Positions 8,916 to 60,479 are shown, counted from the first letter of the stretch. The stretch is DNA of 64,000 bases from Eledone cirrhosa (GCA_964016885.1 OZ024741.1:391282001-391346000), one strand, 5' to 3'. Notes: generated by a model from the sequence alone, not told the origin. Made by a program: numbers and translations.

Positions 8916-9038
8916 TATATATATAAGTTAATAAAAACAATGAATAAAAACAAAGAACAAGTTCCTTATATTAAAAATTCATCATTTTACGATCGTTTCT
9001 AGGATATATATGTGTTGGTATGTATATCATATAGAAAT

Positions 9039-9166
9039 TCATTTCTGAAGACAGCATATATATGTGAAGGTATGTATATTTCCTCTGATAGTTCGTAATA
9101 TTTTTACATAGATCTATATGGTATATATACCAACACATATATATCCTAGAAACGATCGTAAAATGA
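9039..9166 (+). ncRNA. Hammerhead ribozyme with a ~97-nt stem II, inside inverted mini-element 8926-9353
   Basis: tcattt-CTGAAGA-cagcatatatatgtg...cacatatatatccta-GAAA-cgatcg-TA-aaatga. Confidence 0.75.
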
Positions 9167-9414
9167 TGAATTTTTTAATATAAGGAACTTGTTCTTTGTT
9201 TTCATTCATTGTTTTTATTAATTTATCTTGACTCTGTTTTCCTATGATTTTCATCGAAAATCTTTGAATGCATCTTCTCTTTTCATGATATTTGGATTAC
9301 ATTGAGTTCTTCATGCGGATTGGACACAACCGTATATTTTGGTAGATTTATCTACACACACGCACACACACACACACACACACACACACACATATATATA
9401 TATATATATATATA

Positions 9415-9712
9415 CATTGTTATACTTTGGGAGGTCATGCTACCAATATAAACACAAGCACGTGTTTGTTTTCAATTTAATTTATTATAAACTTCCAGTT
9501 GGTTCGTTTCATAACCAGATCGTTGTTGTCAAAGCTTTCGTCTCACATTCTGTGACCTCCTCGGTAACTGATATGTTATTTTTTTGTCTCTCATTTGTTC
9601 AACTTGTTTTTTGTGAGCTGTCGAAAACAAGATGGCAGCATGAAGCTACCAAAGCATAACAATAACTGTTTCAACATGAGTTTTCAGATAAGAAATCTTG
9701 CAAAACAAAACA
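9415..9712. mobile_element. Family A-type non-autonomous inverted mini-element
   Basis: Homologous to 1750-1990, followed by an inverted tail copy at 9630-9712. Same layout as 56388-56712. Confidence 0.7.
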
Positions 9713-9912
9713 TATATACACACACACACACACACACACACACACACACACACACACACACACACACACACACACACATATATATATATATATATATATA
9801 TATATATATATATATATATATATACACACACACACACACACACACACACACACACACACACACACACACACACACACACACACACACACATATATATATA
9901 TATAGAGAGAGA

Positions 9913-11474
9913 GAGAAAAATACTGCAGGTCGCACATGGAAACATGTAATAAAATAAGTCCCTCATCAGTGATTTGCCGAAGATCATAGATATTTCATTG
10001 CATTAAAAATCATATATCTCACTTCGGTGCAATAATAACCAAAATAAGTTATTAAGACAATTAAAACGCGTAAAGCGAGTGAGACAGGAGAACAACAGAA
10101 AAATTAGCATACCTTAGGGGAGAAAAAGCTTCAAAAATTATTCGTTTAGCGTAAGCTAGGTGAATATATGAGAGCTGAGAGAGTAGAACCAACACAAACG
10201 AAGGCCATTGAGCAGAGAGAGAAAAAATAGCGTTCGTGAGTGCAGGATGAAATGAAGAGAAGAGGGAGAAAAACAGTGAGTGAGTGAAAGTGTGAGGAAG
10301 AGTTAACGGACAAGACAGAGGGGGAGAAACAGAGAGAATGGGGGAACAGTAAGAGAGAGAGAGAAAAACACAGAATCGCAGTGGTAAATATATGTATTAA
10401 AATATAGAGAAAAATACTGCAGGTCGCACATGGAAACATGTAATAAAATAAGTCCCTCATCAGTGATTTGCCGAAGATCATAGATATTTCATTGCATTAA
10501 AAATCATATATCTCACTTCGGTGCAATAATAACCAAAATAAGTTATTAGGACAATTAAAACGCGTAAAGCGAGTGAGACAGGAGAACAACAGAAAAATTA
10601 GCATACCTTAGGGGAGAAAAAGCTCTTCCTCACACTTTCACTCACTCACTGTTTTTCTCCCTCTTCTCTTCATTTCATCCTACACTCACGAACGCTATTT
10701 TTTCTCTCTCTGCTCAATGGCCTTCGTTTGTGTTGGTTCTATTCTCTCAGCTCTCATATATTCACCTAGCTTACGCTAAACGAATAATTTTTGAAGCTTT
10801 TTCTCCCCTAAGGTATGCTAATTTTTCTGTTGTTCTCCTGTCTCACTCGCTTTACGCGTTTTAATTGTCCTAATAACTTATTTTGGTTATTATTGCACCG
10901 AAGTGAGATATATGATTTTTAATGCAATGAAATATCTATGATCTTCGGCAAATCACTGATGAGGGACTTATTTTATTACATGTTTCCATGTGCGACCTGC
11001 AGTATTTTTCTCTATATTTTAATACATATATTTACCACTGCGATTCTGTGTTTTTCTCTCTCTCTCTTACTGTTCCCCCATTCTCTCTGTTTCTCCCCCT
11101 CTGTCTTGTCCGTTAACTCTTCCTCACACTTTCACTCACTCACTGTTTTTCTCCCTCTTCTCTTCATTTCATCCTGCACTCACGAACGCTATTTTTTCTC
11201 TCTCTGCTCAATGGCCTTCGTTTGTGTTGGTTCTATTCTCTCAGCTCTCGTATATTCACCTAGCTTACGCTAAACGAATAATTTTTGAAGCTTTTTCTCC
11301 TCTAAGGTATGCTAATTTTTCTGTTGTTCTCCTGTCTCACTCGCTTTACGCGTTTTAATTGTCCTAATAACTTATTTTGGTTATTATTGCACCGAAGTGA
11401 GATATATGATTTTTAATGCAATGAAATATCTATGATCTTCGGCAAATCACTGATGAGGGACTTATTTTATTACA
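9913..11474. repeat. Tandem and inverted array of a 494-bp non-coding unit
   Basis: Period of 494 bp (9921 to 10415; 10956 to 11450) with an inversion point at about 10623. Near-identical copies flanked by microsatellites. Confidence 0.9.
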
Positions 11475-11550
11475 TATATATATATATATATATATATATA
11501 TATATACATAGATAAAATAAATCAAAGAACGCCTACATACTTATACAATT

Positions 11551-11610
11551 TTTATTCGCTAACAATGTTTCATCCATACCGTGGGGCAGGCATCCTCAGA
11601 GCGTAATAAA
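11551..11610 (-). ncRNA. Hammerhead ribozyme in island 11508-11935
   Basis: tttattacgct-CTGAGGA-tgcctgcc...ggtatggat-GAAA-cattg-TT-agcgaataaa. Confidence 0.75.
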
Positions 11611-57527: not shown

Positions 57528-58760
57528 ATTGGTAAACGGAATAGAAAATGCTGACAAATTGTTCACAGTGAAAAATAGTTTAATTAGGAATAAGTGATAA
57601 TTAGTAATAGTATTGGTTAGTGTACAATCTGGACACACTCCAGATACATATTTGTGCACAGGTATACAATTTCTGGACACACTCCAGATACATGTGTACA
57701 GTTTGTGCACAGGTATACAATTTCTGGACACACTCCCGATACATATTTGTGCACAGGTATTCCAATACGGCAAGGCCTAATGGATCCCTCTTGCAGTACG
57801 TACAATCTGGACACACTCACACACACCTTGGTATTATGCCAATACTATATATCATTTCACACCTTTTATTATTAAGGATTTTGATGTTCTATTGAGAGAA
57901 TCGATTTTACTGAAAATATCGAATATTGTACGCCATTTTAACAGAAATAAATACTGATCCCCCCCCCCCCCCCCCACACACACACACACATTCTCTCTCT
58001 CTCTCACACACATGCACACGCGTACATTAACATACAAAGAGACATACACACACACACACACACTTCTCCGTATAAGACAAGAGCTGAAAAAATATCTTTT
58101 AACATGTTAAAATATCCCCCACACACTTACAGACACATTCCTACTGACCATCCCTCTACCACGAATTACTCTGCTACACACACACACACACACACACACA
58201 CACACACACTACACAGACACACTTGTCTTAATAGGCATTTGAACTGTCAACAGGCTGCGGTCGCACACACATCCCTGCCGACCATTATCACAACAACGAA
58301 CCTCTTTACTACTACTACACACACACACACATATTTTTGTTGTGAAAGACTTATCTCTCAGTCAGCCGATACAAACCTACATTTGGCGCAAAATCAATTT
58401 TTTACATTCACATGACCTCTACCGACCAATTAAAATTGTTTTGACCACAAGAATTTTTGCAACACGAATTGGCGCAAAACTTATTTTAATACCGCTGGAG
58501 CCACTTTTTTAACATAAAAACAGGTAGAATACCCAAAACTAATCAGATCAGAGCAAACATCACGGACGCTCTATCTCAAAATTATTTTTGAAAAGCATTA
58601 GAAATGCGCAACCGGTAAAACTTAAAACCAAAACTTAATACTAACCAATACTATTATTAATTCTCACTTATTCCTAATTAAATTATTTTTCACTGTGAAC
58701 AATTTGTCAGCATTTTCTATTCCGTTTACCAATATGTCATAACTTGTGTGTTACACCTCT
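57528..58760 (+). mobile_element. Family B pLTR-only inverted element
   Basis: Short inverted arm at 57528-57620, local tandem repeats at 57621-57760, then the family B 3' end with the HHR-like motif and tail. Confidence 0.85.
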
Positions 58761-58958
58761 ATTCTTTTAAATATATATATATATATATATATATATATAT
58801 ATAAAAGAAATAGAATTTCGCTTCAAGCATAGCTTTATACAATATGTATAAATATTTCGTATCTCCAAAGAAATACAGTCTTAGGAAGGCGTAGCTATGC
58901 AAACACCGGGGGGGGGGCGAACGCCCTCTGGTGATGTCCAGCAGAAGTAAGGAGGACA

Positions 58959-59002
58959 ACCGTCTATGCATTTCAGGCTTAACTGGCCTTCGTCAGGCCG
59001 GT
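58959..59002 (-). ncRNA. Minimal hammerhead ribozyme
   Basis: accggc-CTGACGA-aggc-cagttaa-gcct-GAAA-tgca-TA-gacggt. Confidence 0.75.
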
Positions 59003-59297
59003 CCCTCCCACCGCTTGCGACTGCTGGACTAGAAGACAGCTGTACTTAACAAAAACAACCACAACAGATTGTCTTGCCCCAGAAAAATTTTTTATAGACT
59101 TTTGACTGAGGAATGTTCTCACAACTAACCAATGGGAGGAGAGAGTGTCCTATGATGCCGAAATTCGTTTGTTCGAATTCATATGATTCCAGTTCCTCAG
59201 AGAAATAACAACCCAACCAGGAGCTGGACATATCGGAGTATTGACGGAGTAAAACACTTTAACAACATGTGTACCTGCCTCTACCACACCAATTCGG

Positions 59298-59352
59298 ACT
59301 GCCTGAAGAGGTCACAGCCAATGATGGTTGTCACCGAAATATATATAGCAGT
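59298..59352 (+). ncRNA. Hammerhead ribozyme
   Basis: actgc-CTGAAGA-ggtcacagcca-atga-tggttgtcacc-GAAA-tatata-TA-gcagt. Confidence 0.85.
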
Positions 59353-59763
59353 ACATCTTTAATAAACGAAGCCAAATTTTAAATATTTGACTTAATTACT
59401 TTATTCCGGGGTAACCAAACCAACCTGCGTACTTCGTCGAGTGCTCCATCTGCATACTGAGGTGTCGGTAAACAACCAACATATACTCAGAATATATATA
59501 TATATATATATATATATATATATATATATATATATATATATATATATATATATATATATATGTATACACAGAGGTGTCCACTGTAAGTTGTGGGGTCTAT
59601 TCTGCATGAAGAACTCGATGTAATCCATATGTTGAAAATGTTGTAGGTTAAGATAAATCTCAGAAAACAATAAAACATTAAATGGAAAACAGAGTCATGA
59701 TATAAGTTAAAACATATATATATATAAAATACACAATTATCAAAGGTATGTGCAAGTCATTTA

Positions 59764-59814
59764 AATGCTGACAATCGTTTCTTCCAAACTTATGTTTGGA
59801 GTCATCGGAGCATT
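59764..59814 (-). ncRNA. HHR with CCGATGA core; inverted partner at 59988-60038 (+); element spans about 59720-60100
   Basis: aatgct-CCGATGA-ctccaaac-ataa-gtttggaa-GAAA-cgattg-TC-agcatt. Confidence 0.78.
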
Positions 59815-60479
59815 ATCAATGTTTGTGCTTTTAATTTTAATTTTAATTATTGTACAATTCTCGTATAATATATGTCGCATCCATTACACCCTGTAAATAC
59901 GAAACTGTTGTTCACACCATCAATATATATGTATCTATATGATTGTTCAGTTGAATAGGAGGTTAATTTATATGTACAAACATTGATAATGCTCCGATGA
60001 CTTCAAACGAAAGTTTGGAAGAAACGATTGTCAGCAATTAAATGATTTGAACATAACTTTGATAATTGTGTATTTTATATTCCTGCTCTCTAAAACACCT
60101 GATGTTCTTACATTGAGCTATTTCTCTTACTGGTAATAAAGTAGTAATAAATTACTGACCTTTCCTGTTTATATTTGTTTATAATATATACATAACTATT
60201 AATAGTATCATTATTATAATAATAATAGTACCAGTAATAAAATAAAGTAACAGTAATACACTGGGTAATTGCTGGCCTTGTGCCTAACGTAGAAACAATT
60301 ATAATAATAATAATAATAATAATAATAATTGTTTCTACTTTGGGCACAAGGCCAGCAATTACCCAGTACCAGTAATGCACTGGGTAATTGCTGGCCATGT
60401 GCCTAAAGTAGAAACAATTATTATAATATATATATATATATATATATATATATATATATATATATATATATATATATAT

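Follow-up and report, generated by a model that had tools for sequence, protein, structure and literature searches.

Mirrored Penelope-like insertions in the window

The sequence analysed is a single 64-kb window of the Eledone cirrhosa genome (GCA_964016885.1, OZ024741.1:391282001-391346000), and positions are counted from its first nucleotide. It is AT-rich animal DNA (31% GC, 200 N) in which repeat fragments lie between long (TA)n, (CA)n and (GA)n arrays, among them insertions of Penelope-like elements (PLEs) built of two arms that mirror each other. A first-pass annotation had named thirteen such loci between 8926 and 60100, and six additional loci of the same build (6327, 9415, 9913, 13558, 23933 and 56390) bring the total to 19. 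The mirrored loci are genuine insertions with a PLE architecture that has already been published, and the asymmetries between their two arms bear on the way in which they were inserted.

Arms were detected by self-comparison of the window together with pairwise alignment. Mirrored arms are present at 12 of the 13 named loci, with 90.5-100% identity within a locus; the exception, 23330-23552, has no arm pair and is a deleted remnant, in which a left piece consisting of tail only is followed by a central palindrome of 16 bp and then by a right arm. The annotated boundaries mostly hold to within a few bases, except that the locus placed at 50740 starts at about 50725, the one given as 57528-58760 ends at 58770, and the tail on the right side of 59720-60100 extends to approximately 60212.

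Orientation was established from a hammerhead scan, open reading frames (ORFs) and homology between copies. The scan detected 16 motifs in the window, whereas all 40 Markov-model controls were empty. Eleven of the thirteen named loci could be independently oriented, and all eleven have a sense-minus left arm and a sense-plus right arm (0.5^11 = 5e-4), in agreement with the annotated polarity. For family B (13343 and 39191), which gave no hammerhead in the scan and no ORF match, the polarity is assumed and these loci count for architecture only. Rfam returned nothing for family B, a weak test considering that it also overlooked two motifs in a control stretch, and for the whole window it gave merely microRNA-like and similar chance matches below the gathering score among the 150 of 214 matches listed; because of the overlooked hammerheads it was dropped as an orientation test.

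Every named locus carries an extra tail on one arm, of about 33-158 bp, as had been described. The outward 3' ends both lie in (TA)n at ten of the thirteen loci, two of these with slips, whereas the tailed end adjoins (CA)n, (GA)n or (TAA)n at 8926, 23330 and 59720, so that the claim of (TA)n on both sides stands for ten loci and not for these three. The inversion point does vary within families F (22627 vs 40550) and B (13343 vs 39191), yet the 5' ends of the arms cluster: three of four F arms lie within 2 nt of one another and five B arms (two of them a tandem duplicate) within 24 nt. The clustered ends lie at 40833 in F, at 40267-40290 in B and at about 22290 in J. This clustering suggests run-off at defined RNA ends, which would yield symmetric centres. 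Calling the architecture stereotyped was an overstatement, since single-arm insertions (roughly 14, counted by eye) are about as many as the 19 two-arm ones.

The abundance of single-arm insertions is what two separate insertions of the same family would draw on, the second landing in or beside the first and the pair being homogenised later by gene conversion. The PLE protein PAc is able to cut its own pseudo-long terminal repeat (pLTR) (PMC11167929), and arms of different families do lie back to back at 26972-27262 and 58804-59491. Against such an origin, all 11 oriented loci are head-to-head, there is no (TA)n at any readable centre, 18 of 18 scorable loci have one tail, and the arms of a locus resemble one another more than they do other copies (99.5-100% vs 95.7% in family F, 98% vs 92% in B, 97-99% vs 92-95% in C). 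Moreover, the sole same-family tail-to-tail pair (57450-57500 and 58803-58853) has (TA)n between its members. We therefore regard separate insertions as very improbable.

The back-to-back pairs have features of their own. At 26972-27262 (duplicated at 28995-29285) a tailed family J arm on the minus strand abuts a tailless B arm across an 11-nt filler; this pair was set aside as a case of two-RNA priming because the TA-containing filler allows two separate insertions. At 58804-59491 two hammerhead families (minus strand, 58996-58965; plus strand, 59303-59347) stand back to back with no array between them and TA arrays outside. Both mixed-family pairs are also explicable by separate insertions. 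The piece at 57450-57500 is a tail-only 50-bp copy, tail to tail with the full arm at 58803-58853 (49/51 identical), with a family C element in between.

Spacers, tails and end sites

If the second arm arose by fold-back of the target-primed cDNA it would be a subset of the first, and the tailed arm would have to own the spacer. We assigned each spacer to an arm by ORF, hammerhead, other copies, tandem monomers or reads, and scored a locus as crossed when the tailless arm reaches further 5' and owns the spacer and as uncrossed when the tailed arm owns it. Nine of the 19 two-arm loci are crossed (6327, 9415, 9913, 22627, 23933, 43473, 50725, 54773 and 56390), five are uncrossed (8926, 14908, 39192 by composition only, 57529 and 59727) and five have a symmetric centre. 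Fold-back predicts zero crossed loci, and the observed 9:5 is compatible with 50:50 (p=0.42). Mirrored arms are as short as 18-40 bp at the crossed loci 6327, 54773, 9415 and 56390.

Exactly one tail was found at all 18 scorable loci, on the left in 8 and on the right in 10, and it is element-derived in 16 of the 18, as seen from a second copy, a tandem monomer or reads. The tailless arms share their end nucleotide with single-arm copies. At this inner site the element continues in TA/AT nucleotides, 2 or more of which overlap the target in 11 of 13 families; chance would give 3.2 families (p=7e-6), and the most lenient null 6.1 (p=0.005). At locus 43473 longer TA/AT overlaps were available 13-70 nt beyond 45955, where reads leave the element for (TA)n. 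Where both native continuations are known, the arms overlap at the junction by 2, 2, 2, 5 and 6 nt (five junctions).

Both arms duplicate the same 3' segment at 18 of 19 loci, the exception at 23330 being attributed to deletion; this locus was rejected as a twin-priming product with non-overlapping arms because a deletion within a palindrome explains it. The duplication, which at 43473 and 50725 includes the 3' end of the ORF twice, implies that the template was read twice, be it from two RNAs, a tandem RNA or one RNA copied by strand displacement.

Taken together, crossed loci, fixed end sites, the TA/AT overlap of tailless ends and the junction microhomology of 2-6 nt best support the annotated idea that both target ends are primed and the products joined. 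We give a probability of roughly 0.6 to the reading in which each of the two ends was primed at one of the two reverse transcriptase (RT) start sites mapped in vitro, with microhomology joining the cDNAs.

A fold-back hairpin, formed by antisense-RNA self-priming or cDNA snap-back, could account for the same loci if the endonuclease (EN) trimmed one tail and later spacer flips produced the crossed ones. Self-priming is a published model (PMC3846280), and the tail has been ascribed to 'EN-mediated resolution' (PMC8557442). The five symmetric centres among 19 loci fit a hairpin, as do the very alike arms within loci, and at 54773 and 6327 hammerhead stem I offers a natural snap-back site. But trimming would have to hit one exact nucleotide, the same one at which single-arm copies end (4952, 22439 and 27262) and which coincides with the in vitro RT start. 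Flips would be needed in about half of the loci, arms of 18-24 bp included, and crossed loci are not more diverged, with 99-100% arm identity at 9913, 22627, 23933, 43473 and 50725, although conversion could confound this comparison. We consider this origin unlikely.

Dual priming might also have produced the asymmetric loci and cDNA snap-back the symmetric ones, which would suit the perfect or near-perfect palindrome centres at 13343, 23330, 40550 and 47338. The symmetric loci are likewise one-tailed, though, their tailless arms stop at the fixed inner site, and the symmetric centre in family F falls on the same nucleotide as the long-arm end of 22627, as run-off expects. Such a mixed origin appears quite improbable.

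Several observations weigh against priming at both ends. Once a locus has been inserted, its spacer can be flipped by recombination or template switching between the arms. Uncrossed loci would thereby become crossed, so that the number of crossed loci does not decide the matter, and for kilobase arms (43473 and 50725) the assembler could flip spacers too. The five symmetric centres are what fold-back predicts, and under priming at both ends they call for run-off at an RNA end common to both arms as an additional assumption. The tails of 8926 and 54773 are unverified, and the one-tail count, which omits the unoriented inverted repeats at 12359-12651, 29674-30645, 33372-33435, 50326-56205 and 56729-57298 and pairs of short interspersed elements (SINEs), may be inflated by leaving them out. 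In families E and X the overlap at the inner site is 1 and 0 nt in the window copies, and at least 11 of 12 positions match (TA)n at only 11 of 18 tailed ends compared with 16 of 18 tailless ends. Microsatellite flanks hide any target-site duplication, the junction of locus 43473 itself was not seen in four sequencing runs (see below), and all counts come from one window.

Further inverted repeats that carry no PLE marker lie at 12359-12651, 29674-30645, 50326-56205, 56729-57298 and 60237-60427, outside the tallies; possible identities are miniature inverted-repeat transposable elements, older PLE pairs and inverted SINE ends.

Structure of the individual loci

The family G locus (8926..9353) is uncrossed, with a left arm at 8926-9035 (minus) and a right arm at 9036-9353 (plus) that contains a hammerhead at 9045-9160; its tail, at about 9227-9353, ends at (CA)n, and a second copy of it was not seen. 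In family B, locus 13344..13535 consists of a tailed left arm (13344-13486) and a tailless right arm (13483-13535) around a near-perfect central palindrome, with no orientation marker. The other B locus, 39192..40419, likewise without a marker, has a left arm at 39192-39636, a spacer at 39637-39889 and a tailed right arm reaching 40419. By composition alone this spacer probably belongs to the right arm, which would make the locus uncrossed.

Family E (14908..18965, uncrossed) has a left arm at 14908-15474 with a hammerhead on the minus strand (15061-14965) and a SINE-like insert at about 15126-15310, found in this arm alone. The right arm (15475-18965) has the C-terminus of a PLE endonuclease at 15475 (plus) and carries a plus-strand hammerhead (18646-18742), a tail at about 18808-18965 and a fragment of a long interspersed element (LINE) flanked by 18-bp direct repeats at 16386 and 18083. 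A relative of this family at 47338..47733 is symmetric, with a tailed left arm, a perfect central palindrome at 47623-47674 and a right arm with an internal deletion.

Locus 22627..23064 of family F is crossed; its tailless left arm (22627-22815) has a 5' end 26 nt longer than that of the tailed right arm (22814-23064), and the two overlap by 2 nt at the junction. The second F locus (40550..41020) is symmetric around a 4-nt centre, with a tailed left arm bearing a minus-strand hammerhead (40738-40689) and a tailless right arm. The family J remnant at 23330..23551 retains a tail-only left piece with an internal deletion and a tailless right arm on either side of its palindrome; the sequence of family J represents the 3' end of the PLE with the ORF at 20231-21295 (plus).

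At the crossed locus 43473..46061 (family X) a tailless left arm (43473-44853) with an ORF at 44800-44240 (minus) overlaps by 2 nt a right arm (44852-46061) that carries a 107-bp tail. At 45870-46061 an open frame crosses this tail up to (TA)n, which fits a tail made of the start of the ORF. Family C contributes the crossed locus 50725..54753, where the tailless right arm (52594-54753) has a 5' end 775 bp longer than that of the tailed left arm (50725-52593) and contains the RT/GIY-YIG ORF at 52676-53896 (plus), and the uncrossed locus 57529..58770, with a short tailless left arm (57529-57621) and a long tailed right arm. Family K (54773..54929, crossed) has mirrored arms of 24 bp, a tail of ~52 bp on the left, for which no second copy was seen, and a hammerhead at 54864-54893 (plus) in the tailless right arm. 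Family H (59727..60212, uncrossed) has hammerheads on the minus (59808-59770) and plus (59994-60032) strands and a right-hand tail that ends at (TAA)n.

Among the six additional loci, family R (6327..6485, crossed) has a tailless left arm with a minus-strand hammerhead recognised by eye, mirrored arms of 18 bp and a tailed right arm from 6376, whose tail recurs in a copy at 12023-12117. Both family D loci are crossed: 9415..9710, oriented by the ORF at 4920-2145 (minus), has a long tailless left and a short tailed right arm from 9633, and 56390..56713 has a long tailless left arm up to 56633 and a short right arm from 56629 with a partial tail and a 5-nt overlap. Family O (13558..13690) is a near-symmetric palindrome with hammerhead-like halves (by eye) and lies outside the 18 loci scored for tails. 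Families Q and P are built of tandem monomers. The Q locus (9913..11473; 494-bp monomers) has a tailed left arm to 10624 and a longer tailless right arm from 10623, with a 2-nt overlap; it is crossed, with tentative polarity. The P locus (23933..24917; 310-bp hammerhead monomers) has a tailed left arm to 24422 and a tailless right arm from 24417, overlaps by 6 nt and is crossed. With these monomers the arms of both loci resemble non-LTR retrozymes, and by eye a hammerhead with open stem II may be present in the 494-bp unit. Judged by eye as well, the arm 5' ends at 6376 and ~46806 lie at, or at most 3 nt from, a site of predicted hammerhead cleavage, which hints at the occasional use of cleaved RNA as template.

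Two other features are of note in the window. A tandem duplication of ~2 kb at 25640-29285 comprises a LINE 3' fragment and the J/B pair, with unique parts that are 97-100% identical, and may be a recent event or an assembly effect. A seemingly intact LINE ORF of 1068 aa at 60602-63808 contains an APE endonuclease, an RT and an inserted PHD finger.

Identity of the elements

PLE endonuclease ORFs were found at 52676-53896 (plus), 44800-44240 (minus), 20231-21295 (plus), 4920-2145 (minus) and, as a fragment, at 15475 (plus). The family C product matches GIY-YIG in Pfam (E=2e-6), and among 1644 candidate relatives 143 are at least 712 aa long, and RT and GIY-YIG domains are present in many of these. 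For families D, J and X the match came from tblastn or motif alone, Pfam being blank for those four queries. Hammerhead motifs of the minimal type I occur in families G, E, F, K, H, P and others, and the scan of the window returned none for families B, C, D, J and X.

In families C and J a motif reading gives a CX2-5CxxC linker, two cysteines inside GIY-YIG and a C-terminal endonuclease. The family X translation has a CxCX5C linker, CxxC and CxH motifs and no CCHH, with insertion into (TA)n, and its RT part is absent from the window. On these endonuclease motifs, not on phylogeny, C and J are classified as putative Neptune-type and X as putative Hydra-type elements, following the Neptune-type definition (CX2-5CxxC linker) and the Hydra-clade CxCX5C linker and (TA)n insertion described in PMC8557442.

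Read support and the question of artefacts

Two raw runs and two contig sets supplied reads that were placed on 44575-46061 of locus 43473. They show that the left arm natively continues into the spacer, with the joint 44575/44852 present in all four runs. The tail occurs in multiple copies and has deep coverage, and 92 reads of run X9 exit at 45955 into (TA)n. The junction of the locus itself was not seen in any of the four runs. Most of the listed read ends, at 44812, 45200, 45382, 45912, 45972 and 46060, coincide with AATT sites and were taken as restriction ends of the restriction site-associated DNA (RAD) libraries and left unused; the outer tail end of 43473 is therefore without read confirmation. 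A strand-change joint at 45786/45973 was left uncounted because it adjoins an AATT site. In a search of sequencing runs, six of the ten listed held 0.22-0.46 of the query words and none held half; these matching runs contain other copies of the family and not the queried locus.

The missing junction would suit fold-back chimeras from library preparation or assembly, and so would the very long imperfect TA arrays, the 200-N gap and the near-identical tandem block of the window. However, arms within a locus differ by substitutions and by later insertions into one arm (the SINE-like one at ~15126-15310 and the LINE fragment with 18-bp repeats), their ends fall on family-specific fixed sites in independent reads too, and both the crossed loci and the published pattern misfit such an origin. 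We conclude that the mirrored loci are not library or assembly artefacts, chimeras being the least credible of the explanations considered.

In metagenome contigs any inverted repeat was found at 12 of 79 loci, the contigs being too short for tail scoring. Two of them (L047:1-327/1922-2229 and L064:68-404/3340-3676) have a long inverted copy of the post-ORF region upstream of the PLE ORF, which is the classic head-to-head layout in other organisms.

Discussion

The inverted 5'-truncated copy and the one-sided tail, hallmarks of EN+ PLEs, are both found here. In earlier descriptions head-to-head is the commonest arrangement, the tail stands at the 3' end of one inverted pLTR, and junction palindromes and AT-rich targets are noted, with self-priming on an antisense template as the proposed mechanism (Arkhipova et al., 2013; PMC3846280). 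The same layout, with the tail often at a single end and a (TA)n bias, is reported by Craig et al. (2021; PMC8557442), where the mechanism is called open. These elements share with ours the inverted 5'-truncated copy, the junction palindromes, the AT-rich or (TA)n targets and the pLTR hammerheads, so that what is known goes beyond the inverted 5' pLTR credited by the first-pass annotation to include head-to-head polarity, one-sided tail and target preference. They differ in that tails are 30-40 bp there and about 24-158 bp here, and in that antisense self-priming or EN resolution is invoked; the spacer-owning arm is not tabulated in the available passages of either paper. The architecture is thus known, and what the present data support as new is the mechanistic evidence from single tails, fixed TA/AT-overlapping ends and crossed loci.

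Under priming at both ends, a two-arm locus would represent a single insertion event of a PLE or a non-autonomous derivative. The GIY-YIG endonuclease would cut both strands of (TA)n or a compound microsatellite, and the RT would extend one 3'-OH from the inner RNA start site, often aided by a UA/AU overlap of 2-8 nt, to give the tailless arm, and the other 3'-OH from the outer start site to give the tailed arm. Each cDNA would stop by itself or run off a defined RNA 5' end, and the two 3' ends would be joined via short microhomology and then filled in. The outcome would be head-to-head arms with one tail and a spacer owned by the cDNA that ran further. The polarity, single tail, fixed end sites, overlaps and crossed loci are observed in the window; from them we infer that both primings belong to one event and end in a joining step.

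The closest biochemical parallel is PAc, of the Poseidon clade, which cuts and extends both strands of an AT-rich target from two RT starts that bound the tail and is a predicted dimer (Frangieh et al., 2024; PMC11167929). Its RT starts in vitro at RNA sites non-homologous to the cut DNA, in contrast with the TA/AT overlap in 11 of 13 families here, and the available parts of that paper draw no connection between the extension of both strands and inverted insertions. Priming is probably aided by the symmetry of (TA)n, but the looser tailed end indicates that it is not required at both ends. The palindromic target of the first-pass annotation is accordingly unneeded on both sides, with the tailed end off (TA)n at three of 13 loci and the PAc starts non-homologous.

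Its term twin priming also needs replacing. In L1 twin priming a second primer anneals inside the RNA, giving two fragments with an internal deletion (as described in PMC2837659). The two primings at one site, outward 3' ends and internal-junction microhomology are common to both systems, but here the arms duplicate the same 3' segment from fixed starts. This is closer to dual priming, a route put forward for L1 without validation by Meyer et al. (2010; PMC2837659), in which both nicks are primed at the RNA 3' region and give opposite cDNAs with an internal junction. L1 primes on poly(A), whereas here dual priming would be a main pathway, with two fixed internal starts, each used once. A dual- or twin-priming reading of Penelope was not found in the literature searched, most subscription papers lying outside its coverage, including the 2005, 2006 and 2017 PLE papers, in which a model of this kind may be discussed. 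The available passages of the preprint 10.64898/2026.07.22.740005 contributed nothing further.

As a tentative extension, held at somewhat less than even odds, dual priming would be the normal PLE pathway, with a dimeric RT-endonuclease cutting both strands and using the inner and the outer start a single time each; strand displacement might allow both to be used on one RNA, and neither an antisense template nor trimming would be required. Such a rule would yield head-to-head arms, a single tail, crossed and uncrossed spacers and run-off central palindromes, and the (TA)n bias would be fixed in part by pairing of UA/AU at the inner site.

The asymmetry between the two copies bears on the open question of how PLEs move, as both broken DNA ends may start copying. 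Scoring crossed and uncrossed spacers together with tails, locus by locus, offers a cheap genome-wide discriminator between self-priming and dual priming. If dual priming holds, a whole class of retroelements would routinely use a route only postulated for L1, which would also explain many of the palindromes in microsatellite-rich animal genomes.

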